From the IMG/VR virus record IMGVR_UViG_3300032280_000642, positions 86,391-150,390 of that record: a stretch of DNA of 64,000 bases; one strand, 5' to 3'. A program made the translations under genes and the position numbers. This document shows, in pieces, positions 1,929 to 52,653 of the stretch; position 1 is the first letter of the stretch, and each line of letters begins with the position of its first letter. Under the pieces are notes generated by a model. That model had not been told where the DNA came from. It ran no database searches and was given only the letters and a program-made list of their open reading frames with translations. The DNA is from a virus (Duplodnaviria > Caudoviricetes).

Positions 1929-2270
1929 ATGAAACATTTAAAAACATTTGAATCTCATTCAATAAATGAAGAAGAAGGAAGAATATCACAGTTTTTTAGA
2001 GGTCACGATTCAAGTGAAGATAGAGATGCAAAAATGAGAGAATTCTTTAAAGAATTGGATTCTTATGAAGCGCAGGCTAAAAATGATACTGAGATAGTAT
2101 TTAATAGACAATCTTTAGAGAAAAAAGCTAAAGACAATAATTATAAAGGTCATTTAGAAGCTAGAGATTCTAGAAGTGGTGGTACTTATATCATATATGT
2201 TGATGGGGTATCTGATTTTGGAAAACTTGCATCACTTGCGGCAAATAGAAGAGATAATCCACTAGGATAA
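1929..2270 (+). CDS. hypothetical protein with capsid-targeting-like N-terminus (MKHLKTFESH)
   Basis: ORF, upstream TATATA, N-terminal tag. Confidence 0.7.
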   Translation: MKHLKTFESHSINEEEGRISQFFRGHDSSEDRDAKMREFFKELDSYEAQAKNDTEIVFNRQSLEKKAKDNNYKGHLEARDSRSGGTYIIYVDGVSDFGKLASLAANRRDNPLG

Positions 2271-2308
2271 TAATTTTCTTATATTAACAATAAAAAAAAT
2301 CTCGTCTA

Positions 2309-2731
2309 TTAAGAACGAGATTTTTTTAATATTTTTTTATCTACTTTATCTAAAGATTTTAAACCACATTCATTGATTTTATCTAGGACATCATCAACGG
2401 TTTCATTATCTAATCTAAACCTTTTAAATAATTTAGGAGTAAGTGATTCTACTTCTGGATACAATTTTTGTAACTCACCAGAAATCACTTTGTTAGAAAC
2501 ATCTTTGATTTCAATTACAAAATATTTTTTCATTATATCAACAACTCTTTTCAATTTTATAGTATTTAATCTAACAAACATTTCATCGTTATCAGAAAAT
2601 CCTATATAATTAGTATCTTTTTCGTTTAAAGAAAGTGCAATCTCTTCAAAAAATGGATGTGAGAAATCATTATTATCTGAATTAATGTTTTCAACATCCT
2701 CTACAATAGTTATTTGATATATTCTATTCAT
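2309..2731 (-). CDS. hypothetical protein with C-terminal VDDVLDKI..G..SL...DK..L motif
   Basis: ORF preceded by a Bacteroidota-type promoter. Confidence 0.7.
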   Translation of the reverse strand: MNRIYQITIVEDVENINSDNNDFSHPFFEEIALSLNEKDTNYIGFSDNDEMFVRLNTIKLKRVVDIMKKYFVIEIKDVSNKVISGELQKLYPEVESLTPKLFKRFRLDNETVDDVLDKINECGLKSLDKVDKKILKKSRS

Positions 2732-2750
2732 ATCTTATATATTTAGATCT

Positions 2751-2781: not shown

Positions 2782-2838
2782 ATAATTCTAACTTTTTTTG
2801 TAAAAATGTATATAAAATAAAAAATAGACGGAAATAAA

Positions 2839-4365: not shown

Positions 4366-4370
4366 ATAAT

Positions 4371-6435: not shown

Positions 6436-6996
6436 TTATTTCTGTTTTTTAAGTATTGAATCCTGTAATGCTTTTGGTAACTTCTTTTGTGCAGCCGTTA
6501 AACCCTTTTTATCACCAACTTTACCATCTTTAACATCTTTAGCGGCTTTTTTCATAGGTTCTTTTTTATCACCATTTTTGTTTAAATCTAAGAAATCTGG
6601 TTTATCTTCTTTTCCACCTTTTTTATCGTCTTCTTTATCTTTACTTTTAGCTTTTTGTTTATCTAAATATGCTTTGAAACCTGGATTCATTTTTTTCTTT
6701 TCAACGACTCTTTCATCACCCCATTTTCTGATTGTGTTTCCTGCTTGATTTTCTTCTTCCTCTTCTTCTTCTTCTTCTGATAATCCATAGTCATCTTCAT
6801 GTTCTCCTAATTCATTAGTATCATCACAAGTTGTGCAATCTTCTTCATCTTCTCCAAAGTTTTCAAAGTCATCTTCATTGAATTCATTTCCTTCTTCACC
6901 GAATTGGGCTACATCACTCTCACGTTCCTGTGCGAATCTACCGTACTTTTCTTCTTCTTCAAATGAAAAGTTTTCAAATCTTTTAATATGTTTCAT
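6436..6996 (-). CDS. charge-bipolar (acidic N-half, basic C-half) protein with capsid-targeting-like N-terminus
   Basis: MKHIKRFENF; poly-E tract; KPDFLDLNKNGDKKEPMKKAAKD. Confidence 0.75.
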   Translation of the reverse strand: MKHIKRFENFSFEEEEKYGRFAQERESDVAQFGEEGNEFNEDDFENFGEDEEDCTTCDDTNELGEHEDDYGLSEEEEEEEEENQAGNTIRKWGDERVVEKKKMNPGFKAYLDKQKAKSKDKEDDKKGGKEDKPDFLDLNKNGDKKEPMKKAAKDVKDGKVGDKKGLTAAQKKLPKALQDSILKKQK

Positions 6997-7080: not shown

Positions 7081-7863
7081 ATGAAAATAACAAAATTTCA
7101 ACAATACTCTCTTCAAGACTCAATGGTTAATGATTTTATCAACTCATTTGACGGTTTAATCACTGAATCCGATGAAACTGAATACAAAAAAATTCAAAAA
7201 AGAGTAATAAGTGATTTAAGATTAAATGGAAATTTGTCTTTAACATTTGGTGCTGGTATTCAAGCACTTTATCCAGTTGTTAGTAAACTAATGACTAATA
7301 TGAAAATTAGTTCTATTGAAGTAACTGCAGATAAAGTCGTTCTTTTAACAATATGTGCGTTTACAATAGTTTATTTAGAAGAGAAAAAGTTTAAAGATGG
7401 TCAGGAAGAAGATGTTTTAACTAAAGATTCTAAATCTATGTTAGAAGAATTAAAAATGATGGGTATTGGAAATGGAATTGTTAAGAAAGTAGTTAAACTA
7501 TTTAAGTCAATTACTGCAATTTTTAATTTAATTGGTAAACATATAAATTCAGTAGTTAAAGGATTTGTTGATATGTTCGCTTATACTGCAATTTTGATAC
7601 CTATAATGAATGGTATTCTTTATATAGTTGGTAAATATGATCTAAATGTAGATAGTTTCTTAGAAAATTTTGCTGCATTAACAATGGGAGTTGGTACTCT
7701 TATAGCAAAAAATGGAATTATATCAATTATTGATAAATTAAAAGACAAACTTAGTCAAAAAGATAAAAAAGAAATAGTGGATGAGGTCGATACTAATATA
7801 ATAAAGAAGGTATCTGACTTTACACTTAACCCCGAAGATGGTGAAATGATTAATGAACAATAA
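7081..7863 (+). CDS. predicted membrane protein with capsid-targeting-like N-terminus
   Basis: MKITKFQQY; hydrophobic segments VVLLTICAFTIVYL, FAYTAILIPIMNGILYIV, FAALTMGVGTLIA. Confidence 0.7.
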   Translation: MKITKFQQYSLQDSMVNDFINSFDGLITESDETEYKKIQKRVISDLRLNGNLSLTFGAGIQALYPVVSKLMTNMKISSIEVTADKVVLLTICAFTIVYLEEKKFKDGQEEDVLTKDSKSMLEELKMMGIGNGIVKKVVKLFKSITAIFNLIGKHINSVVKGFVDMFAYTAILIPIMNGILYIVGKYDLNVDSFLENFAALTMGVGTLIAKNGIISIIDKLKDKLSQKDKKEIVDEVDTNIIKKVSDFTLNPEDGEMINEQ

Positions 7864-7871
7864 ATTATAGC

Positions 7872-7898
7872 AAACTTAAATGCAGGTTTTCATATAAT
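7872..7898 (+). promoter_or_regulatory. putative phage middle promoter AAAC-N17-TATAAT (representative copy)
   Basis: Same spacing at 4671, 9249, 13019, 24819 (+) and 1885 (-); N18 variants at 2789, 16434, 38629. Confidence 0.6.
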
Positions 7899-7918
7899 AA
7901 TAAAATTAATCGAAATTA

Positions 7919-9247
7919 ATGACACCACAATTAGAAAAAGTATTTTTCAATTACATTTTAAAGAATAAGAAGTATTTTGATGTAGTTAAAACGTTCTTTT
8001 TTAGAAATTCTGAAATTCAATTTGTTTACGGAGTTATCAGACAATACATGCTAGATAATAATGATCCTGGTATACCTACACCAAGACAGATATTAGACAT
8101 GGTCGCTCTTGAAGACAAAGAAGGTGTTATCACTAAAGATATTTTAAAATCAATTTTACAAGTAGACCTTAAAGAGTACGATGAAAAAAACTTCATCGAA
8201 CCAAAATTTAACGCTTGGATTTTAGCCAATCGTTTAAAAACTGGGACTGTTGATATTATCGATGAAACCAGAAACCTTGATTCTATCTCAGACTTTGAAA
8301 AGGCAGTTGAAGCAGCCGGTCGTATTAAAGCAATCGTAGATGAAATGTCATCTACTAATTTTGTTGATGATGACGATATGGGAACCGACTTTGACGATGC
8401 AGAAAGTCACGTACAAGATAGTTCTCGATTCAAAGTTAGCTGTGGTTTTCCAACTATTGACCATATGTTAGGTGGTGGATGGGATATTGGAACTTTCAAT
8501 GTAATTATGGCAGAGACTAATAATGGTAAATCATTATGGATGCAAAACTTTGCTATCAAATCAGCTGATATGGGACATAATGTTCTTTATATCACTTTAG
8601 AAATGAGTGAAAGAAAAGTTATGAAACGTTTAGGTGCAATGCGTTTAAAAATTCCAATCAATGATTATGATACTATATCAAAAGACACTGATTTAATTAA
8701 GAAAAGAATTGCCGGTTTAAGTAAAACTGATGGTGGTGATATTTTTGATAAAAAAGTTGGTAAGATATATGCCAAATTCTGGGCAGCAGGAACTGCCACC
8801 GTTGCAGATTTTGATAATTACATTCAAAAACTTAAAGAGAAAAAAGGAATTAAAATTGATTTAGTTATTGTTGATTATATCACTCTTGTGGCTGCACCTA
8901 AAGGCACAGGAACTGATAACTTATATTCTAAAGGTAAAGTTTTATCTGAAGGATTAAGAGCAATAGGAGCTAAATATAAATGTCCTGTGATAACTGGAGT
9001 TCAAGTTGCGAAAGATGCTTGGAACTCTGCAGATATTACATTAGAAAGTGTGCCCGAATCTAAGGCTATTGCTGAAACAGCCGACACTTTCTTTGCAATT
9101 ATTCGTACAGAAGAAATGAAAAGACAAAACTTGTATAGATTCAAGTTACTAAAACAAAGAGATGGTGACTTTTTGAAGTCACAGATTAGGCTTACCCTAA
9201 ACTCAACCTACTTAACTTTAGAGAACGACCAGTTCTTAGATAGTTAA
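7919..9247 (+). CDS. replicative DNA helicase, DnaB/T4 gp41-like
   Basis: AETNNGKS (Walker A), LYITLEMSE, VIVDY, ESKAIAETAD, LKQRDG. Confidence 0.9.
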   Translation: MTPQLEKVFFNYILKNKKYFDVVKTFFFRNSEIQFVYGVIRQYMLDNNDPGIPTPRQILDMVALEDKEGVITKDILKSILQVDLKEYDEKNFIEPKFNAWILANRLKTGTVDIIDETRNLDSISDFEKAVEAAGRIKAIVDEMSSTNFVDDDDMGTDFDDAESHVQDSSRFKVSCGFPTIDHMLGGGWDIGTFNVIMAETNNGKSLWMQNFAIKSADMGHNVLYITLEMSERKVMKRLGAMRLKIPINDYDTISKDTDLIKKRIAGLSKTDGGDIFDKKVGKIYAKFWAAGTATVADFDNYIQKLKEKKGIKIDLVIVDYITLVAAPKGTGTDNLYSKGKVLSEGLRAIGAKYKCPVITGVQVAKDAWNSADITLESVPESKAIAETADTFFAIIRTEEMKRQNLYRFKLLKQRDGDFLKSQIRLTLNSTYLTLENDQFLDS

Positions 9248-9288: not shown

Positions 9289-10254
9289 ATGGCAAAGAAA
9301 CATGTCAGTGATGAAGACGACGACTTCGAAAATGACTTCGATGAGATTGAAGATTTTGAAGGTCCTTCTATGGAAGAATTTGATGAAGAAGATTCTGATG
9401 ATTCCAGTGACTCTGGTTTAGACTTTGGTGATGATGAGGATTTAGATATAATCATTGAAATAGATGAAGATGATTTAGATCTTGATTTAGAACCAGAAGT
9501 AGAGAAAGTAATTGACACTATTGAAGAGGATATTGTTTTGTCTAAACATAAAATAGAAGGAAAACACTCATTAAAGTATGATTCAATCTTTAAAGGTAAG
9601 AAAGAGGAAGCAGTTGATGAAGACGATACTTCAGATTTATTCTCCGGTTATTACAGAGAAACAATAGAAGTGGATAAAGGTTCTAACTATCATTTTGAAT
9701 CAATTGATAATGAAATGTATATTAGAACAAAATTAGTTAAAGAAAGAGTTTATTTCGTATTAGGAGAACATACTGCAATAAACTTCTTGAATAACAGAAG
9801 AAAACCATCAAGAGTAGATTTTAACAATTATTACTCTTTATTAAAAATTCATCTTAAAGATGAAAGCTTTACAAATGTTGAACTTTTTAATGAACTATCA
9901 GTTTACTTTTCTGATAATTTATTCAATATGTTTAAACTATTAGATAACAAGTGGCGTAATTTAATAATTACTGAATTACAAGACCACATTGGAAAAAATA
10001 TTAATTCAAAAGATATTACAAATAGAAATATCTATGAAGGAACAGAAATCGAATTTGTTTGGGATGATCCAATTACAGAAGAAGAAAAGATTATTACTGG
10101 TGTTGTAATGGAAACAGACTACGATACTAGTACTTTTAAAGTGGATTCGTATGAAAATATCTATATTGTAGATATTAAAAATATTACGAAAATTTTAAAT
10201 AATACTAAATTCAAGTATAACCTAAACAAACTCAACAACATAGATTTTTTATAA
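9289..10254 (+). CDS. hypothetical protein with very acidic N-terminal third
   Basis: ORF between the helicase and NrdA; about 80 aa D/E-rich region. Confidence 0.75.
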   Translation: MAKKHVSDEDDDFENDFDEIEDFEGPSMEEFDEEDSDDSSDSGLDFGDDEDLDIIIEIDEDDLDLDLEPEVEKVIDTIEEDIVLSKHKIEGKHSLKYDSIFKGKKEEAVDEDDTSDLFSGYYRETIEVDKGSNYHFESIDNEMYIRTKLVKERVYFVLGEHTAINFLNNRRKPSRVDFNNYYSLLKIHLKDESFTNVELFNELSVYFSDNLFNMFKLLDNKWRNLIITELQDHIGKNINSKDITNRNIYEGTEIEFVWDDPITEEEKIITGVVMETDYDTSTFKVDSYENIYIVDIKNITKILNNTKFKYNLNKLNNIDFL

Positions 10255-10354
10255 AATAAAATTTTTTGACATTATAAAAAACCAATAAAAAAAAGAATAT
10301 TGATTTTTTTAGATTAAAAAGTATTTCAATATATAAAAAACAAAAAATTAATAA

Positions 10355-12904
10355 ATGAGCATGATAAAAGTAATGAAAAGAAATGGTAAGAAAGAGCCAG
10401 TCATGTTAGACAAAATCTTAGACAGAATAACACAACAAACTTATGGTTTAGACCAAAAGTGGATTGTTCCTTTTGAAGTTGCCCAAAAGGTAATCGAAGG
10501 AATTATGCCAGACATTCAAACTTCTGTTTTAGATCAACTAGCAATGGAGACTGCAGCATCTCTTACAACAAAACACCCTGACTATTCAACATTAGCGGCA
10601 AGATTAGCAATTACGGCATTACACAAAGAAACTAAGAAAAGTTTTTCAGAAACTGTTTCTGACTTATACAAATACGTAGATCCAAAAACTAGAAAGCACT
10701 CACCGATTGTTTCTAAAACTTTCTACGATATTGTAAAAAAACACGCAGACGAATTAGACTCTGCGATTGTACACTCCAGAGATCATAACTTTGATTACTT
10801 TGGATTCAAAACATTAGAAAAATCATATCTATTGAAACTTGACGGTAAAGTTGCCGAAAGACCTCAATATATGTATATGAGAACTGCACTACAAGTTTGT
10901 GGTGAAGACATACAAGGTGTTATCGATACTTATAACTTACTTTCAGAAGGTTATTACACACACGCTACACCAACATTATTCAACTCTGGAACAACAAGAC
11001 CACAATTATCTTCTTGTTTCTTACTTGATACAGAATCAGATTCTATCGAAGGTATTTTCAATACTTTAAAAGAATCTGCACAGATTTCTAAAAATGCAGG
11101 TGGTATTGGTATCTCTTTTACAAAAGTAAGAGCAAAAGGTACTTATATCGCAGGAACTAACGGTACTTCAAATGGTATTATTCCTTTCCTAAAAATCTTC
11201 AACGAAACTGCAAGAGCAGTAGACCAAGGTGGTGGGAAAAGAAAAGGATCTATTGCAATTTATATGGAACCTTGGCATGCAGACATTATGGACTTCTTAG
11301 ATTTAAGAAAAAATCAAGGTAAAGATGAAATCAGAGCGAGAGATTTATTCTTAGCTATGTGGACCAATGACTTATTTATGGAAAGAGTTGACTTAGACGA
11401 AGATTGGTCTTTAATGTGTCCACACGAATGTCCTGGGTTAACTGAAACTTATGGTCAAGAATTTAGAGATTTATACATTGGTTATGAATCAGAAGGAAGA
11501 TTTAAAAGAGTAGTTAAAGCTAGAGAAGTATGGAATAAAATCTTAGAATCTCAAATTGAAACTGGAACTCCTTATATCTTATATAAAGACTCTATCAACG
11601 AGAAGTCTAACCAATCAAACATTGGTGTAGTTAGAAGTTCTAATTTGTGTGCAGAAATTGTGGAGGCCACTGGAATTACTAAAGTTCAGAAAGAAATTCT
11701 TCAAAATAAAGAATTATTGGAAAGTTTAGGATTAGGTTCATTCTACGGTGAAGAATCTGTAAATGAAACTGCAGTTTGTAACTTAGCTTCTATTGCACTT
11801 CCTAAGTTTGTAAATAAAAACAAAACTTATAACCATAACAAGTTATTTGATGTTGCTTATCAAGCTACTATAAACTTAAATAAAGTTATTGATGTAAATT
11901 ACTATCCATCAGAAGCAGCTAGATTCTCAAACTTATTACATAGACCAGTTGGTTTAGGTGTTCAAGGATTAGCAGACGTATTCTTTTTATTAGGAATTAC
12001 TTATGATTCTGATGAGGCAAAATCATTAAACAAAGAGATTTTTGAAACTATTTACTATGCTTCAATTAAAGCTTCTTGTGATTTAGCTAAAGTAGAAGGA
12101 GCCTACCCAACATTTGCTGGATCTCCAATTTCAGAAGGTAAATTCCAATTTGACTTATGGGGAACAAAACCAACAAAAAGATGGGATTGGGACAAGTTAA
12201 GAGAAGACATTAAAAAATATGGTGTTAGAAACTCTTTAACTACTTGTATTATGCCAACTGCATCAACTGCATCTATCTTAGGAAACGAAGCAAGTTGTGA
12301 AGCTCAAACTTCAAATATGTACACAAGAGGTGTTTTATCTGGTACTTTTATCATTGTAAACAAATACCTTGTAAAAGAGTTAGTTAAATTAGGTATCTGG
12401 TCTGATAACATTAGAAGAAAGATTATTGCAGAGAATGGTTCAGTTCAAAACATACCTGAAATTCCTACTAATGTAAAAGAAATATTTAAAACAGTTTATG
12501 AGATTAAACAAAGAGACGTAATTGATATGGCTGCAGAAAGAGGTGCATTTATTGATCAAACTCAATCAATGAACATCTTTATGGATTCTCCAAACTTCGC
12601 AAAATTGACAGCAATGCACTTTTACGGATGGGGAAGAAGAGCTCTTATGAAAGATGAAAATGGTGTTGAAATTATCCCACAAGGAGAAAACACAGAAGTA
12701 ATCTATGATAAAGCGGGGAAACCAAGATTTTACAGAGAGAAAAAATCAGCTTTAAAAACTGGTATTTACTATCTAAGAAATAAAGCAGCAGGTGATGCAG
12801 TTAAATTCACAACTCAAGAAGAAGTGAAATCTACTGAAGATCAAATGGCAGAAATCAGTTGTTCGTTAGACAACCCAGATGATTGTTTAGCATGTGGTTC
12901 ATAA
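10355..12904 (+). CDS. nrdA: ribonucleoside-diphosphate reductase class Ia alpha subunit with ATP cone
   Basis: VMKRNG ATP cone; ATPTLFNSG..QLSSCFL; DQGGGKRKG; SNLCAEI; CNLAS; MPTASTA; LKTGIYYLR; C-terminal CLACGS. Confidence 0.97.
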   Translation: MSMIKVMKRNGKKEPVMLDKILDRITQQTYGLDQKWIVPFEVAQKVIEGIMPDIQTSVLDQLAMETAASLTTKHPDYSTLAARLAITALHKETKKSFSETVSDLYKYVDPKTRKHSPIVSKTFYDIVKKHADELDSAIVHSRDHNFDYFGFKTLEKSYLLKLDGKVAERPQYMYMRTALQVCGEDIQGVIDTYNLLSEGYYTHATPTLFNSGTTRPQLSSCFLLDTESDSIEGIFNTLKESAQISKNAGGIGISFTKVRAKGTYIAGTNGTSNGIIPFLKIFNETARAVDQGGGKRKGSIAIYMEPWHADIMDFLDLRKNQGKDEIRARDLFLAMWTNDLFMERVDLDEDWSLMCPHECPGLTETYGQEFRDLYIGYESEGRFKRVVKAREVWNKILESQIETGTPYILYKDSINEKSNQSNIGVVRSSNLCAEIVEATGITKVQKEILQNKELLESLGLGSFYGEESVNETAVCNLASIALPKFVNKNKTYNHNKLFDVAYQATINLNKVIDVNYYPSEAARFSNLLHRPVGLGVQGLADVFFLLGITYDSDEAKSLNKEIFETIYYASIKASCDLAKVEGAYPTFAGSPISEGKFQFDLWGTKPTKRWDWDKLREDIKKYGVRNSLTTCIMPTASTASILGNEASCEAQTSNMYTRGVLSGTFIIVNKYLVKELVKLGIWSDNIRRKIIAENGSVQNIPEIPTNVKEIFKTVYEIKQRDVIDMAAERGAFIDQTQSMNIFMDSPNFAKLTAMHFYGWGRRALMKDENGVEIIPQGENTEVIYDKAGKPRFYREKKSALKTGIYYLRNKAAGDAVKFTTQEEVKSTEDQMAEISCSLDNPDDCLACGS

Positions 12905-14895: not shown

Positions 14896-14896
14896 T

Positions 14897-14925
14897 TAAA
14901 AACCCACCAATTGGTGGGTTTTTTT
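14897..14925. terminator. bidirectional intrinsic terminator
   Basis: AAAAACCCACCA-AT-TGGTGGGTTTTT. Confidence 0.85.
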
Positions 14926-15688: not shown

Positions 15689-15738
15689 ACTTTATATATT
15701 ATTTTTTAGGGGCTCATGACAGACTAATATATACTTTT

Positions 15739-16879: not shown

Positions 16880-16959
16880 TAACAAGTCCGACGAAAGTTG
16901 GACTTTTTTTATAAAGTAGCCCTAAATTTTTTATATATACATAAAAAGAATTTAATTAG

Positions 16960-18591: not shown

Positions 18592-18597
18592 TAAGAA

Positions 18598-20118: not shown

Positions 20119-20136
20119 AAAAAATATATATAGTTT

Positions 20137-22579: not shown

Positions 22580-22612
22580 AAAAAAAGAGACTTTAAAAGT
22601 CTCTTTTTTTTA
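22580..22612. terminator. bidirectional intrinsic terminator
   Basis: AAAAAAAGAGACTTT-A-AAAGTCTCTTTTTTT. Confidence 0.8.
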
Positions 22613-23314
22613 TTCTTCTATTTTTTCAAACCACCAGTTAAAATAAATATAATTATCTCCAACTAAGTTATATACATCAGTATCATGCTTGATAATAATT
22701 TTATCATTGTGTGCTCTAATTAATTCAATCTCAATTCCAGCTTCCATTTTTAATTGTTTCCCCGTTTCAGTAGAATAACAATAAACTTCATTATTTAATA
22801 ATCTATACATTCCTGGTTCTGGTTTTAACCAAGATTTTAATGTTTTAATAATCAATCCTTTTATTTTAATAACCCATTCTTTTGGTTGATATAAATCATA
22901 ATCTTTAAAAACTTCAGAAGTAATATCTGGTGAAGGAGACATCATATCTTCAATAACACCCCAATATTCTTCTTCTCCAATTGTAAATGCAATATAAACA
23001 TCATATTTTAATGAAGTTGATTTAATAATTCTTAAAACTTTTAATGCAGTAATATCTTGTTCTTCTAATGCTAATTTACTTCTAAGTGCTTTATAAGCAT
23101 TAGTTCCCTTTAAATTATACATAATGTCATTAATACGTGACATCGCTTGTCTAATCATATCCTGGTTCTTATCAAATGCGTTGATAGAAAGAGCAGGATC
23201 ATCAACATGTGAGGATGCTTGAACAGAATCACTATTAAATCTTTGTAAGTTGAATTCCGATGTTTCAAACACTTTTGTAAATTGTGAAAATTTTAAAATT
23301 TTTAATTTATCCAT
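22610..23314 (-). CDS. hypothetical protein with capsid-targeting-like N-terminus (LKFSQFTKVFE)
   Basis: ORF; TTAATATATA at 23319-23328 (minus). Confidence 0.75.
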   Translation of the reverse strand: MDKLKILKFSQFTKVFETSEFNLQRFNSDSVQASSHVDDPALSINAFDKNQDMIRQAMSRINDIMYNLKGTNAYKALRSKLALEEQDITALKVLRIIKSTSLKYDVYIAFTIGEEEYWGVIEDMMSPSPDITSEVFKDYDLYQPKEWVIKIKGLIIKTLKSWLKPEPGMYRLLNNEVYCYSTETGKQLKMEAGIEIELIRAHNDKIIIKHDTDVYNLVGDNYIYFNWWFEKIEE

Positions 23315-24507: not shown

Positions 24508-24828
24508 ATGAAAATAAGAAGATTTTTTGAAAGTGAAGAACAAATAGATATTTCTCCAGAGAGAATTGGTGAGATGATGAATGAACTAAAAGAGTTCATT
24601 GCAAATATTGAAGATAAATCAAAGATAGTAGATTCTCTTGGTACTGAACTAAGTAATTATAAAAATAACTCTACAAAAAGTAATGATCAAATAGATGATT
24701 CAATTGCCGCTTTACAAGTTATTAAAAAAGATTTAGATGATTGTATAGATAAATTAGATACAGTTGTAAGTAATTTAGACTCATATAATCAAGATGGTAG
24801 AAAATATTTATACACCGAAAACAAATAA
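24508..24828 (+). CDS. coiled-coil protein with capsid-targeting-like N-terminus (MKIRRFFESE)
   Basis: ORF, heptad pattern, upstream TATATA. Confidence 0.7.
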   Translation: MKIRRFFESEEQIDISPERIGEMMNELKEFIANIEDKSKIVDSLGTELSNYKNNSTKSNDQIDDSIAALQVIKKDLDDCIDKLDTVVSNLDSYNQDGRKYLYTENK

Positions 24829-25221: not shown

Positions 25222-25740
25222 TTATTTAGTAAATTTCAATTTGTAAAGAGTTCTATAAATTAAAACAACAATATCATCAATTATACTATGTAAGTGTGTA
25301 TCTTCTAATGATATAGCTTTTCTACCGTGTTTTACAAACTCTGCCAAACCTTCAAAGTATTCAACTTTTTCTTTAGTTTTAGTTTCAGCAGTATCAATAG
25401 TTTCATAACCATCAACAATACCATATTGTCCTTGATATGTTTCTATAACTGTATCAATTAAATCTAATATACCATCATAGTATTCACCTAATGCAGTATG
25501 TGCTGCGTGTGAACCCATTTCACCATTTACTTGTAAGTGGTAGATATGTGCCATCTCTCTTGATTCAAATAATTTAGAGAAAAGTGCAACTGGACTTCCA
25601 GGTCCTTCTTGAGTTTCTGGTTGTGGTTCTGGTTGTTCAACCTTAGTTGTTTCTACCTCAGTAGTAGTAACTTGAGGAAGATTAGCAGCAACTACTTCGT
25701 CTGCTTCGTATATTTTTCTAATTGTAGAAAATTTTTTCAT
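25222..25740 (-). CDS. ferritin/Dps-like (DUF5856-like) protein with capsid-targeting-like N-terminus
   Basis: AHIYHLQ..AAHTALGEYYD..DTVIETYQGQYG..DDI...LYKL. Confidence 0.7.
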   Translation of the reverse strand: MKKFSTIRKIYEADEVVAANLPQVTTTEVETTKVEQPEPQPETQEGPGSPVALFSKLFESREMAHIYHLQVNGEMGSHAAHTALGEYYDGILDLIDTVIETYQGQYGIVDGYETIDTAETKTKEKVEYFEGLAEFVKHGRKAISLEDTHLHSIIDDIVVLIYRTLYKLKFTK

Positions 25741-25822: not shown

Positions 25823-26014
25823 ATGGGATTTATAAAAAAATACAAAATGTTTACTGAAGAGGTTACTATAGAGCCACCTACAAAGGTAGAAAAACCAGTA
25901 GTTGAAGAGGATATTTTAGAAGCAACTGCTGAAGATGTAGTGGATAGATTTGCTAGACTTTACAAAGATCTACCTAAAGAAAAGAAACAAGAAATAAATA
26001 ATTACTTTAAATAA
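25823..26014 (+). CDS. small protein with capsid-targeting-like N-terminus (IKKYKMFTEE)
   Basis: ORF after TTAATATATA at 25790-25799. Confidence 0.7.
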   Translation: MGFIKKYKMFTEEVTIEPPTKVEKPVVEEDILEATAEDVVDRFARLYKDLPKEKKQEINNYFK

Positions 26015-26015: not shown

Positions 26016-27779
26016 ATGAAAAAATTTTCCGATTTTATAAAAGAAGAAATAGATTTAAGAGGTAACAGTGGAGTTCCTAGAGATTTCATGAGAAACTCTG
26101 AAGAAGAAGCTGAGAGAAATTTAGGTATTAGACCAGATGATGAAAGTCAGATGAGAGAGGTTTGGCCAGATTTTCAAAGAAAAATGGGACAATCTATGCA
26201 AATGATGATGCAGGGCCCAGATGGTAGACCATTAGGTAGACCACAGATGCAAGAAAGAGTAGAAGCTTTACAAAACCTAGCAAAAGATCTTATCATGGAT
26301 GAGTATGGTGATATACTAGAAGCTTCTTCAAAACCTGTTGAACTTGACATTAAATTAGTAATGATGGGTCAAGTTAATCAAAATGTTCCTGATTTAAGAG
26401 ATGTTCCATCAACACCAGAAAGAAATCCACGTGAAGATGAAACTCATGAAAGTGAAGACGAAGAAGATCAAGATAGTGAATGTGCTGATGGTTCTTGTTC
26501 AAATGATGATGAAGACAATGATGAAACTACTGAAGATGATCAACCTACTGGTAGTGTTTTAAATGCTGCAATGAAGAAGAAAATTCTTAATATGTTAACA
26601 CAAGGTGAAGGTAAAGCAACTAAAGATATTATTAAAGCTTCTCCTATTGTTGAAGATGGTTTACAAAGAATATTTGGAAATAATGGAGAAAGAATCCTAA
26701 GAATATGGAGTGAAATGTCTGATATTGCTGATAAAATGGACTGGATTATACCAATACAAGATAAGGCTAGAATGATGAGTGGTAACTCAGGTGGTATGGC
26801 AGGTGCGACTGATGTAACTTGGGAAAGTTTAAATAACAGTACTTTCTCAATTCAATTACTAAAAGAGAATCAAGATTATAGAAAAATAACTATTAAAGCG
26901 GTTGGTGTTGACTTTCCGATGTTAATTCACGAAGCAGTAAAAGGTATTTACTTACTAATTCAATCAGCAGCAATTAAGAAAGATAAAGAATTTGCCAAGA
27001 AAGTAAAAGCGGCAACTTCTTCATTTTTGGATGAAGCACAAGATTTTAGATACGGTGTAACTGCACAAGCAATGTTTAATGATTTTATTAATGCTTGTAA
27101 AGATTCTCAAAAGTATAGACAAATGAGAACAAGAGTATTTAGATTATTGGCAAATGATAAAGAAAGATTAACTGCAAGAGCCAATGCCGAACAAAATGAA
27201 GAATTAAAAGATTTACTTAAAAAAGAAGCCAAACTTGCCTTAACTGATGAAAAGTTCTTGGAAGTATTTAATAGTTTACTTTCTGTTTTTGATAAAGTTA
27301 ATGAAGGTGGTCAACAACAAATAACAGTTTTTGGATTTAACCGTGGTGGTGGTAGAATAGCATTTGTTATTAATCAAGAAAGATTTAATCAATCTGTAGC
27401 AAAAACTGTAATTGAAGGTTTAATCAAACATATTGTAGATACAGAAGAAGCTTATGAACAAGCAATAAAAGAGTGGGAATTAGAACAAAAATTAGGACCA
27501 GCTACTAACTATGATGAACCTGATACAGAAGATGATGAAGATCCACTAGGATTAGGTTTAACAAAACAAGAAGAACCAGTAGATGACGGTGTTTATTCTG
27601 ATGAAGATCTTTCAAAAATGAGAAAAAGAGATATTCAAGAACTTATGGATGCTGCTTTAGATGCCGGTGATTACGATGAAGTTAGAAGACTTAGTGGATT
27701 TCTTAAAGAAGGTGCAGAAATCTATTTAAGAGAGTTAGAAAGAATAAATGAAAGCCAACACACAAGAAGACAAAAATAA
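26016..27779 (+). CDS. large acidic hypothetical protein, likely internal virion protein (MKKFSDFIKEE)
   Basis: Long ORF; FPMLIHEAVKG motif; N-terminal tag. Confidence 0.75.
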   Translation: MKKFSDFIKEEIDLRGNSGVPRDFMRNSEEEAERNLGIRPDDESQMREVWPDFQRKMGQSMQMMMQGPDGRPLGRPQMQERVEALQNLAKDLIMDEYGDILEASSKPVELDIKLVMMGQVNQNVPDLRDVPSTPERNPREDETHESEDEEDQDSECADGSCSNDDEDNDETTEDDQPTGSVLNAAMKKKILNMLTQGEGKATKDIIKASPIVEDGLQRIFGNNGERILRIWSEMSDIADKMDWIIPIQDKARMMSGNSGGMAGATDVTWESLNNSTFSIQLLKENQDYRKITIKAVGVDFPMLIHEAVKGIYLLIQSAAIKKDKEFAKKVKAATSSFLDEAQDFRYGVTAQAMFNDFINACKDSQKYRQMRTRVFRLLANDKERLTARANAEQNEELKDLLKKEAKLALTDEKFLEVFNSLLSVFDKVNEGGQQQITVFGFNRGGGRIAFVINQERFNQSVAKTVIEGLIKHIVDTEEAYEQAIKEWELEQKLGPATNYDEPDTEDDEDPLGLGLTKQEEPVDDGVYSDEDLSKMRKRDIQELMDAALDAGDYDEVRRLSGFLKEGAEIYLRELERINESQHTRRQK

Positions 27780-27789: not shown

Positions 27790-29865
27790 ATGAAACTTTT
27801 TAAATATAACCAATTTTTAGGAGAAGATACTTTAAATGAAAATTTAGATAAAGCTAAGAAATTCTTAAAAGAAAGATATGTTTTATTGACAGCAGCAAAA
27901 GAGCTTGATATACTTAAAGGTGAATTAGCGGCACAAATTCAACATAGAGAAATTAGATCTGTTAGATTAATTGATTTTCAACCTGAACAAAGAGAGCAAC
28001 TAAAAATGAAACTAAGAGATATTTCAGTAACTCCTGAACTACTTAGAACATTTGAGAGAGAAACAGAGTTTGTATCAGTAAGAGGATTAAAAACTAGTGT
28101 TAAAATGCCAAAAGGTGTTAAAGAATTTCAATTAGATAGAGATAATATTGGTTGGTTATCAAATTTTACTTACTTCTATTATTTTGAAAATGTTCCATTA
28201 GAAGACTTATCAGTTGTTTATAGAAGATTGATACAAAATAAAGACATTTTACAAAATCTTACTATTGAGAAACCAAAAGGAACTTTTATTAAGATTCAAT
28301 TTGATGCTAACTTTATTGATGAGAATGAACCGAATAACTTTGAGTTACTAACTGATGGATTAGATAGATTAGAACAATCAAGAAAGATTAAAAAAATGTA
28401 TGATACTTTAACTCCAGAGTTGAAAAAATCATATGATGAAGCTTCTGACTTAAATAAAGAAAAATTCTTATCAGTTGCGGTTGGTTTTGAACAATTAGGA
28501 CTAAAACCAGATGGTACTGTTGATGAAGTTAAGACAAAACAAATTTGGGATGACTTCTTTGGTAGAATGGCACCAGACACAAGACCTTTAAAACCAGATG
28601 GAACTCCAAATCCAACTTTTGGTAAATTAGTTTATCAATCGACATTAAGAAGATATCCTAATATTCACGCATTCATTATTGCAGCAAATGGTCACCTAGC
28701 ATCTTACGAGATGGATGGATTTACTAAATTCAACGAATTGATTACTACTTGTAATGCTAGATTAGGTGCTGCAGGAGTTGAAAAGGTTTTCAATGAGAAT
28801 GGTATTCTTATCTTAGAGGTAAATTCATTTGCCGCTAACCAAATTATAAATGGACATACATCACATTGTATTAAAGATAGTAAAGACCAATGGGATAGTT
28901 ACGTAGAAAATCACGATAATAAACAATATTATATCTATGACTTCCACGTACCTTTAAGAGATAACTTCTCTACAATTGGTATTACAATTGAACCAGGACA
29001 AAGAGTTAGAGCTTGTCATAATAGACCTGACCACTCTGTTTCAACTACAGAGTTTAAGAATATCTTAAAAAGATGGGAGAGAGAGTATAACATTGATAAA
29101 GACTTATGGTCATTCTTCTTACCAATGGATGGTGAAGAAATTAGAAAAAGACAAAAAGCCAAAGAAGCAAATAGAGAAATTGTTAAACCTGGTTTAAGTA
29201 TGGCTAAAATTATTGAATATGTTACTGAATATGGTGCAGACATCAATAAAGATAATGGTAAATGTTTATTCAATGCAGTGGCAGAAGACGATTACGAGAA
29301 AGTAGAACTAATCTTAAAATTAGGTGGACAACCTAACTTAACAAAAGGTAAAGATGCTCCTATTTCTAAAGCAACTAATCTTAAAATGATTAAACTTTTA
29401 GTTGATTATGGTTCTGAGATGACATCTGATGTATTCAAAAGTGTTGTACCTGATACAGAGGCTCTTGATTACTGTTTGAAGGCAGGTCTAGATCCTTTAT
29501 TTAGTCATAATATGCCATTAAGAAAATGTTTCTCTGGTACTTATGATACATTAAATGCACCTGGATCATCAGTTAAGAAAAAAGGAGAACCTTATTGGGA
29601 ATCATTTTTAATGATGATGAAATACCTTGAAAGAAAAGATATTGTAGAAACACTTTACTTTAAAGGAGGTATGATTACTAAGTGGGCAACTGACTATGGT
29701 AGAACTGAATGTTTAGATTATTTTGAAAAAACTGGAGTTTATAAAAAATATACTGAAAAAGATTGGAATGACTTATTTGAATGGATAGATGTTTCAAGAA
29801 GTAGTAGTCCAGAAACAAAAGTCGAAACTTTAGCTTATGTTAAAGAATTAAAAGCAAGAAATTAA
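27790..29865 (+). CDS. hypothetical protein with C-terminal ankyrin-like repeats (MKLFKYNQFLGE)
   Basis: EYGADIN..CLFNAV..VELILKLG, IKLLVDYG; central HCIKD..WDSY motif. Confidence 0.7.
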   Translation: MKLFKYNQFLGEDTLNENLDKAKKFLKERYVLLTAAKELDILKGELAAQIQHREIRSVRLIDFQPEQREQLKMKLRDISVTPELLRTFERETEFVSVRGLKTSVKMPKGVKEFQLDRDNIGWLSNFTYFYYFENVPLEDLSVVYRRLIQNKDILQNLTIEKPKGTFIKIQFDANFIDENEPNNFELLTDGLDRLEQSRKIKKMYDTLTPELKKSYDEASDLNKEKFLSVAVGFEQLGLKPDGTVDEVKTKQIWDDFFGRMAPDTRPLKPDGTPNPTFGKLVYQSTLRRYPNIHAFIIAANGHLASYEMDGFTKFNELITTCNARLGAAGVEKVFNENGILILEVNSFAANQIINGHTSHCIKDSKDQWDSYVENHDNKQYYIYDFHVPLRDNFSTIGITIEPGQRVRACHNRPDHSVSTTEFKNILKRWEREYNIDKDLWSFFLPMDGEEIRKRQKAKEANREIVKPGLSMAKIIEYVTEYGADINKDNGKCLFNAVAEDDYEKVELILKLGGQPNLTKGKDAPISKATNLKMIKLLVDYGSEMTSDVFKSVVPDTEALDYCLKAGLDPLFSHNMPLRKCFSGTYDTLNAPGSSVKKKGEPYWESFLMMMKYLERKDIVETLYFKGGMITKWATDYGRTECLDYFEKTGVYKKYTEKDWNDLFEWIDVSRSSSPETKVETLAYVKELKARN

Positions 29866-34101: not shown

Positions 34102-34332
34102 TTATAATTTAAAGTAGTTACTTAATGTATCAATAGTTTGTTTATCATCTTCGTGATACCAAAGTTCTTTACCAACTATAGAAATCTTTTCATCAGTAAT
34201 CAAAGTTCTTAGAGAACCTTCTGTTTGGAATAACTCTAAATCTTCATCACCTAAAGTTAGACTAATAGAACCATCTTGACCCTCATTAGGTCTATAACTT
34301 TCTTTTAAAAATTCATTAAATCTTTTTATCAT
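34102..34332 (-). CDS. small protein with capsid-targeting-like N-terminus (MIKRFNEFLKES)
   Basis: ORF plus tag. Confidence 0.7.
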   Translation of the reverse strand: MIKRFNEFLKESYRPNEGQDGSISLTLGDEDLELFQTEGSLRTLITDEKISIVGKELWYHEDDKQTIDTLSNYFKL

Positions 34333-34346: not shown

Positions 34347-34592
34347 TTATTTATTAAACCAAATAACATATCTTGAACCATCTGGTTGTTCTGAATCAAA
34401 AACAGGATTCTTTCTACTCATATGTTCACCATTTGAATAATAACCAGTTCCATCATCTTTTGTAATATCACCATCTTCTATAGCTTCTTTAAATTCAGGA
34501 ATAGTATAGTATTCACCATAATGAGGAATCTCATCTGTAAAAATCGGATCACTAAGACTTTCGTTGAACTTATCAAAACTTTTTATAATCAT
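34347..34592 (-). CDS. small protein with capsid-targeting-like N-terminus (MIIKSFDKFNES)
   Basis: ORF; TTAATATATA at 34597-34606 (minus). Confidence 0.7.
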   Translation of the reverse strand: MIIKSFDKFNESLSDPIFTDEIPHYGEYYTIPEFKEAIEDGDITKDDGTGYYSNGEHMSRKNPVFDSEQPDGSRYVIWFNK

Positions 34593-37845: not shown

Positions 37846-38204
37846 TGGAGAGAGTAATAGTTGAAATGACATCCTTTATATTTGAAGATGGTAATACCTA
37901 CTATTTTCAAATCTTTAATAGACCGAGCACTAATGATTATCAAGATTTATATGTTTATGAAAAATCATCATATAAAACCTGGTATGGTGTCACAAAATAT
38001 AAGTTTAATCAATTAAATGAACGTCCAGAATTGGTAGATTATAGACTAAGTACAAGTGAGATAAAACAAAGTATTAAAAAGATACTAACTTGTACAAAAG
38101 CTTCATATCTAATAAAAGATTGGGATGGTTTTGTTGGTAATATACCAGATCAAGTTAAAAAAGCACTAACAAGAGATAACAAGTTAAAAGATTTAGGAAT
38201 ATAA
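37845..38204 (+). CDS. hypothetical protein with C-terminal RDNKLKDLGI
   Basis: Coupled ORF; terminal motif. Confidence 0.7.
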   Translation: MERVIVEMTSFIFEDGNTYYFQIFNRPSTNDYQDLYVYEKSSYKTWYGVTKYKFNQLNERPELVDYRLSTSEIKQSIKKILTCTKASYLIKDWDGFVGNIPDQVKKALTRDNKLKDLGI

Positions 38205-39351: not shown

Positions 39352-39801
39352 ATGAAATTAAAAAAATTTAATGAGCACTTTGAAAAGCAGACACTTGTTA
39401 TCTCTGCATTTCCAGGTTGTGGAAAGTCTCACTTTTTTAGAGAAAATAAAGATAAAGAGGTTTTAGATTCGGATTCAAGTAAATTTGATAAGACCCATTT
39501 TCCACAAAATTATATTGAGCATATAAAGTCTAACTTAGGTAAAGTAGATATAATCATGGTTTCTTCTCACAAGGAAGTTAGGGATGAATTAGTAAGAAAC
39601 AGAATTCCTTTTACTTTAGTTTATCCAAGTCATGAAATTAAAAAAGAGTATATACAAAGATATATTGATAGAGGAAATACAAGTACATTTGTAGATTTAC
39701 TAAATAAAAATTGGGATTCTTGGATAAATGAGTTAGAAGCACAAGAAGGTTGTAATAAAATTGAACTTAAAGAAGGACAATATCTTTCTGATGTAATTTA
39801 A
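39352..39801 (+). CDS. P-loop kinase-like protein with capsid-targeting-like N-terminus
   Basis: MKLKKFNEH; ISAFPGCGKS; DSDSS; RG; start moved to after TATATA at 39334. Confidence 0.75.
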   Translation: MKLKKFNEHFEKQTLVISAFPGCGKSHFFRENKDKEVLDSDSSKFDKTHFPQNYIEHIKSNLGKVDIIMVSSHKEVRDELVRNRIPFTLVYPSHEIKKEYIQRYIDRGNTSTFVDLLNKNWDSWINELEAQEGCNKIELKEGQYLSDVI

Positions 39802-41336: not shown

Positions 41337-41909
41337 GTGGATAAATTTAGTAACCTTAAACCAAAAGAAGAATTTAAAAAAGATAAAGAAGAACCAGTTT
41401 ATCAAGATAAACATATGTCAGTCATTAAATTTGAAGACTGGTCAGTCGTAAGACATAAAGATTATGTTGTTTGCATTCCTTACCTAATCGAGTCAAATCA
41501 AGTCGTTTTAAGATACGAATACATCCCAACATTCAAGTACACAGACGGGCAAGAATATCATCTTACATTAGTCGGTGGTGGCGTTGAAGAAGGCGAAGCA
41601 CACGACTTAGCAATTACTAGAGAACTTGAAGAAGAAGCCGGAATTGTTTTAAGAGAAGATTATGAACTAGAACCGTTGAGACCTTTATTCTTAACAAAGA
41701 TGAATGCGAATAAGGTTTACCCTTATATTATTGCTTTACACGAAAAGGATTATCACGAGATTGTTCCAAAAGGTGATGGTACAAAACACGAAGCAATTTC
41801 TAAATCAGTAAAAGTAAATATAAGCCAATTAAAGAATTTAGAAACATCTGATCTAATTACAGATTATATTTTATTGAAGTTAAAAGAATATATGAACTTA
41901 CAGAAATAA
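41337..41909 (+). CDS. Nudix hydrolase (ADP-ribose pyrophosphatase-like); GTG start
   Basis: GGGVEEGEAHDLAITRELEEEAG. Confidence 0.85.
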   Translation: MDKFSNLKPKEEFKKDKEEPVYQDKHMSVIKFEDWSVVRHKDYVVCIPYLIESNQVVLRYEYIPTFKYTDGQEYHLTLVGGGVEEGEAHDLAITRELEEEAGIVLREDYELEPLRPLFLTKMNANKVYPYIIALHEKDYHEIVPKGDGTKHEAISKSVKVNISQLKNLETSDLITDYILLKLKEYMNLQK

Positions 41910-42160
41910 TGAAAAAATTCACTGAAAGTACAGGTCATAAAGACCTTGAAGGAAATTGGGTAAATGAAACACCACAAGCTAAATTGAGAAATCAGTTGGG
42001 TCCATTCTGGACGTTAGTGGACTTATTATCAGAAGAAAGATTAGATAAGATTTTAAATCATCCTGAAGGTTTAGAAATGATACAAAAATGTTTAGAACAA
42101 TGTAAAGATAGTCAACAAAGAATACTCGACTTAATAAAAGAAACAGAAAAACCATCTTAA
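41909..42160 (+). CDS. small protein with capsid-targeting-like N-terminus (MKKFTES)
   Basis: Coupled ORF. Confidence 0.65.
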   Translation: MKKFTESTGHKDLEGNWVNETPQAKLRNQLGPFWTLVDLLSEERLDKILNHPEGLEMIQKCLEQCKDSQQRILDLIKETEKPS

Positions 42161-42174: not shown

Positions 42175-42660
42175 TTAGTCTTCTAAATTCATTTTATATT
42201 CAATGTCAATTGAGATTTCTGATATAGGATAAAGTTGTAACCAAGCAGACTTTGGTATTTCACTTGAAAAAGGTAAAACACTAAAATCTTCTTTTGATAT
42301 TACTCTATCAACATCATATGATGTATATACTTGTGGGTATCTATCTACTAATGGACTAAACATCACTTGTTCATAACATATAGAATAGTTTCTTGACAAG
42401 TGTGTCAGGAAAGGAATAAAATAGTCTTTAACTTCTTCCCAAGTAAATCCCTTATATATACTTCCTTCTTTAAGAATAGAGATATGAAAGTTTTTATGTG
42501 TATAATCATTTGAAACCTCAACTACAAAGTCTTCATCTACAAGATAAGCTAAATTTGTCTCACAGAAATCTTTAAGTTCCTCTAATTCTCCTTCTTCTGG
42601 TTTGGACATAAAACCAAACTTTCTACTTTTTGATTCATTATACGTCTTTAAGTATTTCAT
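42175..42660 (-). CDS. hypothetical protein with capsid-targeting-like N-terminus (MKYLKTYNES)
   Basis: ORF; TATATA just upstream. Confidence 0.7.
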   Translation of the reverse strand: MKYLKTYNESKSRKFGFMSKPEEGELEELKDFCETNLAYLVDEDFVVEVSNDYTHKNFHISILKEGSIYKGFTWEEVKDYFIPFLTHLSRNYSICYEQVMFSPLVDRYPQVYTSYDVDRVISKEDFSVLPFSSEIPKSAWLQLYPISEISIDIEYKMNLED

Positions 42661-45002: not shown

Positions 45003-45227
45003 TTATGATGGGTTTTTTTTATGTTTATCTAATATGTCTGACGTTTTTATTACTTCATCTGGTGCATTCTTTATTTCTGAACCTTCAACATCATGACTTA
45101 CTTTAAATCTTGATTTTGAAACCTTTTCAATGATTTTCACTGGGGTAAGCATATCGTTATACCAGTACTCTATAAGCACTACGTCTCCTTCTTGGTAAAA
45201 TGATTTATATTCTAATAGAAATCTCAT
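45003..45227 (-). CDS. small SH3/Tudor-like protein (MRFLLEYKSF)
   Basis: EGDVVLI..W..PVKII..; TTAATATATA at 45232-45241 (minus). Confidence 0.65.
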   Translation of the reverse strand: MRFLLEYKSFYQEGDVVLIEYWYNDMLTPVKIIEKVSKSRFKVSHDVEGSEIKNAPDEVIKTSDILDKHKKNPS

Positions 45228-52212: not shown

Positions 52213-52224
52213 AATATATAGATT

Positions 52225-52653
52225 ATGTTAAAAAGATATTCACAATTTATAAACGAGGCTGATGAGACTGAACAACCAGTACAAGAACAACCAACTGCTG
52301 CACCAGAGGGTATTAAAACATTGGATAACTCTAAATACCCTGAGGTTATGGAAGAAGTTCAAAAAATGATTGAAAACACTATACAAAAAAGTGGTGGTGA
52401 ATTAAAATCATTTATTGAATCATTTGAAAAGAATCCAGAAGATGTTAAAGTTGAAGGATTTATAAATGATTCAGATGTTTATGATTTCTACTTAAAGTTT
52501 AGAAATGATGTTGATGAGATTTTGAATAATATAAAGTTCTATGATGAATCTCCTACAGAAGTAAATGCTTTTGGCTTATATGAATATGTTATAAAAGGAA
52601 CAGAACGTGCTTTTATGGAAGTCGTTAAAATGATAAATAAAAATCCTCAGTAA
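52225..52653 (+). CDS. protein with capsid-targeting-like N-terminus (MLKRYSQFINEA)
   Basis: ORF; TATATA at 52215; terminator after. Confidence 0.75.
   Translation: MLKRYSQFINEADETEQPVQEQPTAAPEGIKTLDNSKYPEVMEEVQKMIENTIQKSGGELKSFIESFEKNPEDVKVEGFINDSDVYDFYLKFRNDVDEILNNIKFYDESPTEVNAFGLYEYVIKGTERAFMEVVKMINKNPQ

Follow-up and report, generated by a model that had tools for sequence, protein, structure and literature searches.

A short N-terminal tag resembling the T4 capsid-targeting sequence on many unrelated proteins of a giant phage clade

A shared N-terminal tag on unrelated proteins

We analyzed a 64,000-nt stretch of viral DNA (the window), the final 64 kb of a linear 150,390-bp IMG/VR virus record (IMGVR_UViG_3300032280_000642, positions 86,391 to 150,390, 29% guanine plus cytosine (GC); the whole record is called the contig below), together with a short N-terminal peptide tag found on many of its proteins. 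The tag resembles the capsid-targeting sequence (CTS) of phage T4. It is probably a propeptide of this type, cut by the head protease, which has spread to about one-fifth of the genes of the clade, and loading into the capsid is the best reading of its role. The motif itself is real, clade-specific and independent of AT-rich composition, since it stands out against shuffled sequences, internal Met sites and genes of phage PTm1.

The tag is a peptide of 8–12 residues composed of Met, one to four further residues, Lys or Arg, an aromatic residue, often x-x-Phe, and a hydrophobic-x-Glu that ends at residue 7–14. Its long form can be written as M-[IL]-K-[KR]-[YF]-x-x-F-[ILV]-x-E, for example MLKRYSQFINEA, MIKKYNQFVNEE and MIKRFNEFLKES; a shorter form, MK[YH][LI]KxFNE, occurs as well, and about 25 further genes carry a shorter variant. 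By eye, we curated a tagged set of 39 genes, with 129 untagged genes making up the remainder of the 168 genes considered on the contig. The gene set was 161 for the objective rule described below and 167 (greedy open reading frames (ORFs)) for the regular expressions. All 17 N-termini listed for the window in the original prediction were found where it had placed them; 13 of them pass the objective rule, whereas four are weak (7081, 22610–23314, 41337 and 45003–45227; Table 1).

The objective rule requires Met, at most four residues, Lys or Arg, an aromatic residue and then hydrophobic-x-Glu, all inside 15 residues. It flagged 36 of the 161 contig genes (22%), compared with about 8 in shuffles and 1–3% of internal Met sites. 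The same rule stayed at background in PTm1, a T4-like Bacteroidota phage of 29.5% GC (2/66), and in a stretch of T4 (2/67), and no tag was seen among the listed N-termini of PTm1. Relatives of the contig were flagged at rates of 34/207 (G005), 108/642 (G007, a 98%-complete sequence of 483 kb) and 20/121 (100 kb of LR745206.1).

Searches of other kinds gave the same picture. An a priori regular expression for the T4 CTS, [KR].?[FYW]..F[ILV].{1,2}E, matched within the first 16 residues of 9/167 genes, while composition-preserving shuffles gave 0.15 and internal matches amounted to 1 in 44,158 positions. A second expression, ^M[KR].[ILV][KR].[FYL][NEQ], found 11 genes (shuffled 0.05, internal 0). 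In addition, a de novo expectation-maximization (EM) motif search over residues 2–19 recovered [LIY]-[KL]-[KR]-[FYL]-[NE]-[EQ]-[FE]-[IL] with a log-likelihood ratio of 174, against 106.5 ± 6.3 (maximum 121) in 100 composition-preserving shuffles. The original prediction had proposed a motif comparison with shuffled controls among its checks, and both the EM search and the regular expressions lie far above the shuffles. A position matrix built from the contig proved overfitted, scoring T4's own CTS very low, and was dropped for comparison across phages.

In AT-rich genomes, N-termini tend to contain Lys, Phe, Asn, Glu, Tyr and Ile, and a motif produced by chance and composition would fit with the observation that Lys, Leu and Ile are slightly enriched at residues 2–12 of untagged proteins too and that a loose rule has a background of 1–5%. 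However, the shuffle, internal-position and PTm1 controls exclude this explanation, and all 29 database matches to the tag pattern described below open an ORF, which leaves it with a practically negligible probability. Synonymous codon use is likewise similar in tags and gene bodies (AAA 86% versus 80%, TTT 88% versus 78%, GAA 90% versus 79%, TAT 67% versus 81%). AT-rich codon bias, which the original prediction had named as its possible undoing, therefore does not explain the motif.

The tag is also widespread outside the contig. A DNA pattern for M-I-K-[KR]-[FY]-x-[QE]-F-x-[NK]-E was found in 29 IMG/VR contigs with a GC content of 23% to 42%, many of them 100–480 kb long, and every match opens an ORF of 32–562 amino acids. 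Among tag-bearing records, gp23 was present in four of five tested and the T4 portal in all five tested; the two sets overlap only in L013. Overall, 17–22% of genes are tagged, which corresponds to about 100 per 483-kb genome (G007).

The signal lies in the peptide and outside the predicted fold

Past residue 20, the tagged proteins share no BLAST similarity except for two paralogous pairs, in line with the claim that the tag is common to unrelated proteins. As expected of a portable tag, Pfam and PHROG matches start after it (DUF5856 at residue 77, phrog_858 at residue 53, NFACT-R at residue 24 and the HAD-like DxD at about residue 20). Orthologs in LR745206.1 kept the tag in 11 of 14 cases, with swaps within K/R, F/Y/W and I/L/V. 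The tags do not look like Sec or lipoprotein signal peptides: none of the tagged N-termini has a hydrophobic window, and the tags are short, polar and Glu-ended.

The best example is the family of a kinase-like protein of 149 amino acids, for which 493 homologs were found. The best 120 of these, at 68–99% identity, all keep M-[KR]-[LIV]-K-[KR]-[FY]-N-E-[HY], followed by a linker of 3–6 residues, variable in both length and sequence, that leads to strand 1 and the P-loop. Column entropy is accordingly 0.3–1.5 bits in the tag and 2.1–2.9 bits, with indels, in the linker. In an AlphaFold model of the protein (mean predicted local distance difference test score (pLDDT) 87.8), residues 1–10 have no secondary structure and a pLDDT of 44, while the remainder scores 84–96 and adopts a nucleoside monophosphate kinase/Fap7-like fold with structure matches to Fap7 and adenylate kinase. 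Since the tag is conserved, the linker drifts and the start is predicted to be unstructured, this is, judging by alignment and model, the picture expected for a linear motif that a partner recognizes.

Relationship to the T4 capsid-targeting sequence

Based on its gene content, the contig represents part of the genome of an uncultured giant phage and encodes a portal, a head protease and a capsid protein of the T4 type (Table 1), and tagged genes follow directly 3' of the capsid gene. The T4 CTS, MKTYQEFIAE, is cut once and takes foreign proteins into the head (PMC8442874; PMC3012670). We read this sequence directly in T4 ipII and ipIII, which encode proteins of 100 and 193 amino acids with isoelectric points (pI) of 9.3 and 9.5 and adjoin denV. 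The proposed resemblance to the CTS holds: besides the a priori expression given above, a DNA pattern for M-K-x-[FY]-x-x-F-[ILVM]-x-E has three sites in T4, namely ipII, ipIII and gp61.1, and none in PTm1. Both the contig tag and the CTS are N-terminal peptides of about ten residues with a near-identical core, K-x-Y/F-x-x-F-I/L/V-x-E, and a hydrophobic-x-Glu end; both are carried by unrelated proteins, and homologous portal, protease and capsid genes occur in both phages. Differences are found in scale, with a handful of such proteins in T4 versus 17–22% of genes here, and in the peptide, which here usually has one extra residue after Met and also comes as the shorter MK[YH][LI]KxFNE form. Furthermore, the cargo here is acidic and includes enzymes, whereas T4 internal proteins are basic.

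A link between the two is offered by the cultured Chryseobacterium phage MA9V-2. The same DNA pattern marks exactly four of its genes, with starts of the form MK[TN]F..F[IV]NE[SA] (Table 1; coordinates L055:6402-6701 and 7851-8450, L052:11960-12766 and 15750-15998). All four proteins are neutral to basic, and by tag, size, charge and position the genes look like T4-type internal protein genes. MA9V-2 shares with the contig a closely similar tag (for example MLKRYSQFINEA), a Bacteroidota host and T4-type head genes; it differs in having only four tagged genes, placed as in T4 within the head module and beside denV. Because MA9V-2 and T4 share pattern genes at matching loci, the tag motif is likely, from these comparisons, to be an old part of T4-type head assembly that is shared across host phyla and was multiplied in the present clade. 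Elsewhere, DNA patterns with T4 spacing gave no match in PTm1 and pT24, one out-of-frame match in Lak-A1 and two raw matches in MaF61; a match in Sphingomonas phage PAU was rejected as a tag, as it falls on a Met within gp72, close to the C-terminus.

The end of the tag also resembles known protease sites. The head proteases of T4, phiKZ and SPN3US cut after Glu, and T4 Alt is cut at ITE-6 and LTE-619 (PMC5694885). A hydrophobic-x-Glu lies in the first 16 residues of 35/39 tagged and 38/129 untagged proteins, a comparison that is partly circular due to the curation of tags by eye. The N-terminal part of the contig capsid protein holds VLE, YAE and SINE; PTm1 has IINE at the aligned position, and the MA9V-2 capsid protein begins ...EFINE. 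This similarity suggests, and proves nothing beyond that, that tag and capsid protein share a type of cut site.

Two further systems invite comparison. The giant phages phiKZ, 201phi2-1 and SPN3US contain many head-internal proteins, and their S80 protease, a relative of T4 gp21, cleaves after Glu (S/A/G-x-E). However, their propeptides are long and dissimilar with no common short N-terminal tag, they belong to another lineage with another capsid module, and in SPN3US only eight head proteins are processed. Shared leader peptides like those of ribosomally synthesized and post-translationally modified peptides similarly place one short N-terminal sequence on many unrelated proteins; they differ in sequence, and the contig tag occurs in the context of a T4-type head. 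A radical-SAM gene was not found on the contig (PF04055, E ≤ 0.01), a weak negative given that the contig covers only about 25% of the genome. Literature text searches with motif strings, and with CTS together with huge phages, retrieved no published description of the tag. The published work on MA9V-1 and MA9V-2 includes no mass spectrometry of virions, and nothing beyond the genome has been published on the tagged genes of MA9V-2.

A promoter-like motif upstream of tagged genes

According to the original prediction, almost all tagged genes follow a TATATA-type promoter. This applies to a majority: the promoter-like motif AATATATA is located within 60 nt upstream of 26/39 tagged genes versus 33/129 untagged genes (p = 6e-6), while 13/39 tagged genes are without it, mostly coupled to an upstream gene. 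Altogether, the motif precedes 59 of the 168 genes, including those for portal and protease and nrdA. Its distance to the ATG falls into two sharp classes, either 4–5 nt (leaderless-type) or 19–31 nt, with a distance of 4 nt at the starts 7081, 23314(-), 42660(-), 45227(-) and 52225.

The shared start could be a by-product of a mobile 5' cassette that carries promoter and first codons, or of the needs of leaderless-mRNA translation, leaving the peptide itself without a role. Such a scenario would explain why 15 tagged genes have AATATATA exactly 4–5 nt ahead of their ATG and why the tag is linked to that spacing. Conserved 5' ends could also drive gene shuffling, a role that has been proposed for the internal protein (IP) locus of T-even phages. 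Nevertheless, we regard this scenario as very unlikely: synonymous codons are used alike in tags and elsewhere, amino-acid changes are conservative, the 13 tagged genes lacking the upstream motif are in many cases operon-coupled, 120 homologs of the kinase-like protein keep the tag while the next 3–6 residues drift, and the tag is also found in contigs of 38–42% GC.

Tagged proteins on the contig and in a near-complete relative

Searches against Pfam and PHROG assigned no known family to most tagged proteins. The annotated ones on the contig comprise a DUF5856 protein, a kinase-like protein, two HAD-like proteins, a GH108 muramidase, an NFACT-R protein and a weak DHH match. Five cargo types had been named in the original prediction. 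The ferritin-like protein (DUF5856/phrog_858) and the P-loop kinase both turned out to carry good tags, whereas the Nudix enzyme and the membrane-like protein have the expected domain or hydrophobic windows combined with weak tags, and the ankyrin protein is tagged while its ankyrin assignment is weak (Table 1). The two large tagged proteins of 587 and 691 amino acids were compared with T4 Alt and show no similarity to it. Just upstream of the window (contig 84179-85171(-)), a tagged protein of 330 amino acids with a GH108 muramidase domain (E = 4e-13) is encoded; this protein could be either an ordinary lysin or an enzyme that the head carries to cut cell walls.

In G007, 18 Pfam families were matched among 104 flagged proteins. 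Strong tags are found on a fusion of an Acb1-like 2H phosphoesterase with an RNase T-type exonuclease, a T4 Rnl1-type RNA ligase and a CCA-adding enzyme. The fusion protein (436 amino acids, L073:4043-5353:-) starts with MLKKYKEFIKES and is, by domain content, a candidate for an enzyme that degrades cyclic-nucleotide signals. With Pfam and PHROG, the tagged set of G007 contained no tail, baseplate or replisome-core family; one tagged protein, the Acb1-like fusion, has a DnaQ-type exonuclease domain, which also gives weak PHROG matches named for DNA polymerase. An M3 peptidase on the flagged list was rejected as true cargo because its tag is at chance level.

Capsid loading and other possible readers of the tag

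In a T4-type scheme, the tag would bind the scaffolding core of the prohead, and the fused cargo would be carried into the shell. The head maturation protease would remove the tag after Glu, and the cargo would be retained in the DNA-filled head and enter the cell with the DNA, by analogy to T4 IPI–III and Alt. That the cargo is injected and serves mainly in anti-defence is plausible by the same analogy. Weak or short tags may not all act as capsid signals.

Several observations weigh against capsid loading. About 100 tagged genes per genome is far above the approximately 50 head proteins of SPN3US (PMC5694885), the highest such number in the literature consulted, and there is no precedent for this scale. 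The tagged proteins are acidic (median pI 5.1 versus 6.8 for untagged proteins) and range from 63 to 691 amino acids, so that they do not fall into the class of T4 IPI–III, which are small, highly basic and DNA-associated. Cut sites are not depleted in tagged bodies (hydrophobic-x-Glu 2.9 versus 2.3 per 100 residues in untagged proteins), and tagged genes do not evolve faster, with orthologs for 12/17 tagged versus 33/49 untagged genes at a median identity of 55% versus 54%. Some tagged proteins, such as the HAD-like and kinase-like ones, look like ordinary cytoplasmic enzymes. In T4 itself, gp61.1 (54 amino acids, L053:267-431:-), which is annotated as hypothetical, starts with MKTFKEFIKE, a near-copy of the CTS. 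Moreover, AATATATA precedes nrdA and not head genes alone, so that it does not by itself mark late genes, and its 4–5-nt spacing class occurs in 15/39 tagged versus 11/129 untagged genes (p = 3e-5); this link between tag and leaderless-type spacing leaves room for an expression-related role. Finally, no virion proteome was found in the literature for any tag-bearing phage.

Concerning the number of proteins, if T4 internal proteins amount to roughly one-tenth of the DNA mass, a 500–600-kb head of the same ratio could, as a rough inference, accommodate 100 proteins of 20 kDa at a few tens of copies each. This estimate suggests that capacity does not preclude the number of tagged proteins. A T4 head contains about 1000 copies of internal proteins (PMC5694885).

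A different reader of the same linear motif would account for part of these points. The tag might be a degradation or timing signal, or an address for a chaperone or assembly hub or for another phage-made structure, and its T4 likeness would then reflect repurposed descent or convergence. The very high number of tagged genes, the acidic cargo with its undepleted cut sites, the enzymes of ordinary metabolism among the cargo and a second, C-terminal motif (RxxK[LI]xx[LI]) on seven proteins without the N-terminal tag are all compatible with such a role. By contrast, it leaves unexplained why the motif agrees with the T4 CTS in its sequence, its length and its place at the N-terminus, why it occurs in the head module and the denV/ip locus of MA9V-2, and why it is found together with T4-type head genes. 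We therefore consider another reader rather unlikely, although the chance is not a trivial one.

Starting from capsid loading, one may go further and propose that a clade of giant T4-like Bacteroidota phages loads about 100 proteins per genome by means of one tag and injects them with the DNA as a takeover and anti-defence proteome. We put this forward tentatively, as a possibility that falls short of being probable. The load would include the Acb1-like phosphodiesterase-exonuclease fusion, tRNA-repair enzymes, kinases, a muramidase and many unknowns, and in this it would resemble the enzyme-packed virions of poxviruses and giant viruses more than known phages. Should the tag function as it does in T4, the complete set of packaged and injected proteins of uncultured giant phages could be listed by a simple sequence rule. 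If true, this would provide a shortlist of first-strike proteins, such as factors for anti-defence, takeover of the host and RNA repair, from genomes in which the majority of genes lack a known function. It would also mean that capsid cargo is able to grow from a few proteins to about 100, and foreign proteins could be loaded into phage heads with a second, naturally occurring targeting peptide. With MA9V-2 in culture, the first step can be tested at the bench.

The C-terminal motif was also seen as a feature of its own. R-x-x-K-[LI]-x-x-[LI] occurs in the last 16 residues of 7/168 proteins versus 0.3 by shuffling, and none of the seven (0/7) is N-tagged. As it sits on seven other proteins, the sequences suggest that the phage uses several short address motifs.

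Source of the contig and gene features

CheckV estimated the record to be about 25% complete. Its capsid protein shares 71% identity with the counterparts in LR745206.1 (634 kb) and LR756502.1 (642 kb) and about 50% with those in LR756504 and LR756501 (genomes of 636–735 kb); we take these four to be members of the Mahaphage group (Al-Shayeb et al. 2020). The next-ranked relatives are the Lak phages, followed by the cultured Bacteroidota jumbo phages PTm1, MA9V-1/2, pT24 and MaF61 and by Sphingomonas phage PAU.

Three of the listed starts lie inside the longest ORF, namely 23314- (LKF at residue 7), 25823 (IKKY at residue 4) and 39352 (ORF from 39331). The tag of the gene at 41909 is doubtful due to its EM posterior of 0.01. 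For the protein of 587 amino acids, no Pfam or PHROG family was matched.

Table 1 Positions of tagged genes, head genes and C-terminal-motif genes, and the tagged genes of phage MA9V-2. Positions refer to the window unless marked as contig; orthologs are those in LR745206.1; rule, objective rule; aa, amino acids.
Position or gene	Strand	Feature	Remarks
1929..2270	+	Tagged, 113 aa, MKHLKTFES	Good tag; ortholog MKYLKTFEN; AATATATA-type motif 26 nt upstream
6436..6996	-	Tagged, 186 aa, MKHIKRFENF	Good tag, then acidic stretch; ortholog MKYLKKFENF; phrog_24078, unknown function
7081..7863	+	Weak tag MKITKFQQYS	No hydrophobic-x-Glu; fails rule; ortholog MKIQRYQEY; membrane-like hydrophobic windows at residues 79-166
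22610..23314	-	Weak/offset tag MDKLKILKFSQFTKVFE, 234 aa	Fails rule; ortholog N-terminus differs; AATATATA 4 nt before ATG
24508..24828	+	Tagged, 106 aa, MKIRRFFESE	Ortholog MKIKRLYEND
25222..25740	-	Tagged DUF5856/phrog_858 (Dps-/ferritin-like), 172 aa, MKKFSTIRKIYE	Tag followed by A and long linker; DUF5856 E = 6.9e-15, residues 77-168
25823..26014	+	Tagged, 63 aa, MGFIKKYKMFTEE	No ortholog within the 100 kb of LR745206.1 compared
26016..27779	+	Tagged, 587 aa, MKKFSDFIKE then E	Sole exact T4-spacing DNA-pattern match of the contig; ortholog MKNFKDFMNEE
27790..29865	+	Tagged, 691 aa, MKLFKYNQFLGE then D	Ankyrin-like stretch 474-545, weak (Ank_2 E = 0.05, below cut-off)
34102..34332	-	Tagged, 76 aa, MIKRFNEFLKE then S	Long T4-like form; ortholog MIKKWNQFNES; near-identical genes in IMG/VR contigs
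34347..34592	-	Tagged, 81 aa, MIIKSFDKFNE then S	Passes rule
39352..39801	+	Tagged P-loop kinase-like, 149 aa, MKLKKFNE then H	Homolog family and AlphaFold model (see text)
41337..41909	+	Nudix protein, weak tag (GTG start, DKFSNL)	No hydrophobic-x-Glu; NUDIX E = 1.4e-7; fails rule
41909..42160	+	Short, doubtful tag MKKFTE then S, 83 aa	Passes loose rule
42175..42660	-	Tagged, 161 aa, MKYLKTYNE then S	TATATATA 4 nt before ATG
45003..45227	-	Weak tag MRFLLEYKSF, 74 aa	Fails rule; ortholog MKFLNEYKSF
52225..52653	+	Tagged, 142 aa, MLKRYSQFINE then A	Nearest to T4 CTS; acidic Pro-rich linker; ortholog MIKKYLQFIKEA; AATATATA 4 nt before ATG
1183-1989(-), 24849-24986, 36323-36505, 36495-36812, 37845-38204, and two upstream of the window		C-terminal-motif genes	
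Contig 9577-11331, upstream of window		T4-type portal	PF07230, 6e-59
Contig 14242-16440, upstream of window		Head maturation protease, 732 aa	phrog_207, 9e-28; PF03420 weak (4e-5, below cut-off)
Contig 16530-18266, upstream of window		gp23-type capsid protein	PF07068, 7e-29
MA9V2_205		Annotated hypothetical	Just before portal region
MA9V2_208		Annotated hypothetical, 82 aa	Between portal and protease genes
MA9V2_265		Annotated hypothetical, 99 aa	Directly after denV, as T4 ipII
MA9V2_269		Annotated hypothetical, 199 aa	

The gene whose tag is nearest to the T4 CTS (52225..52653) sits between genes for proteins of 1941 and 878 amino acids. In the head region of the contig, a tagged protein with an NFACT-R (RNA-binding) domain is encoded directly 3' of the capsid gene (contig 18339-18731), followed by two paralogous M28-like peptidase-like genes (phrog_4191) that flank one more tagged gene (contig 18765-22090). 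Within the window, an ORF of 78 amino acids (24973-25209) weakly matches the C-terminal portion of the gp23 family (PF07068, E = 6.9e-4) and looks like a capsid-protein fragment retained as a mini-gene. Besides that, a Ro60/TROVE-vWA-like protein is encoded at 13447-14895; it has a counterpart with 76% identity in LR745206.1, and its relatives in Vibrio, crAss-like and other phages bear an RNA-binding annotation.

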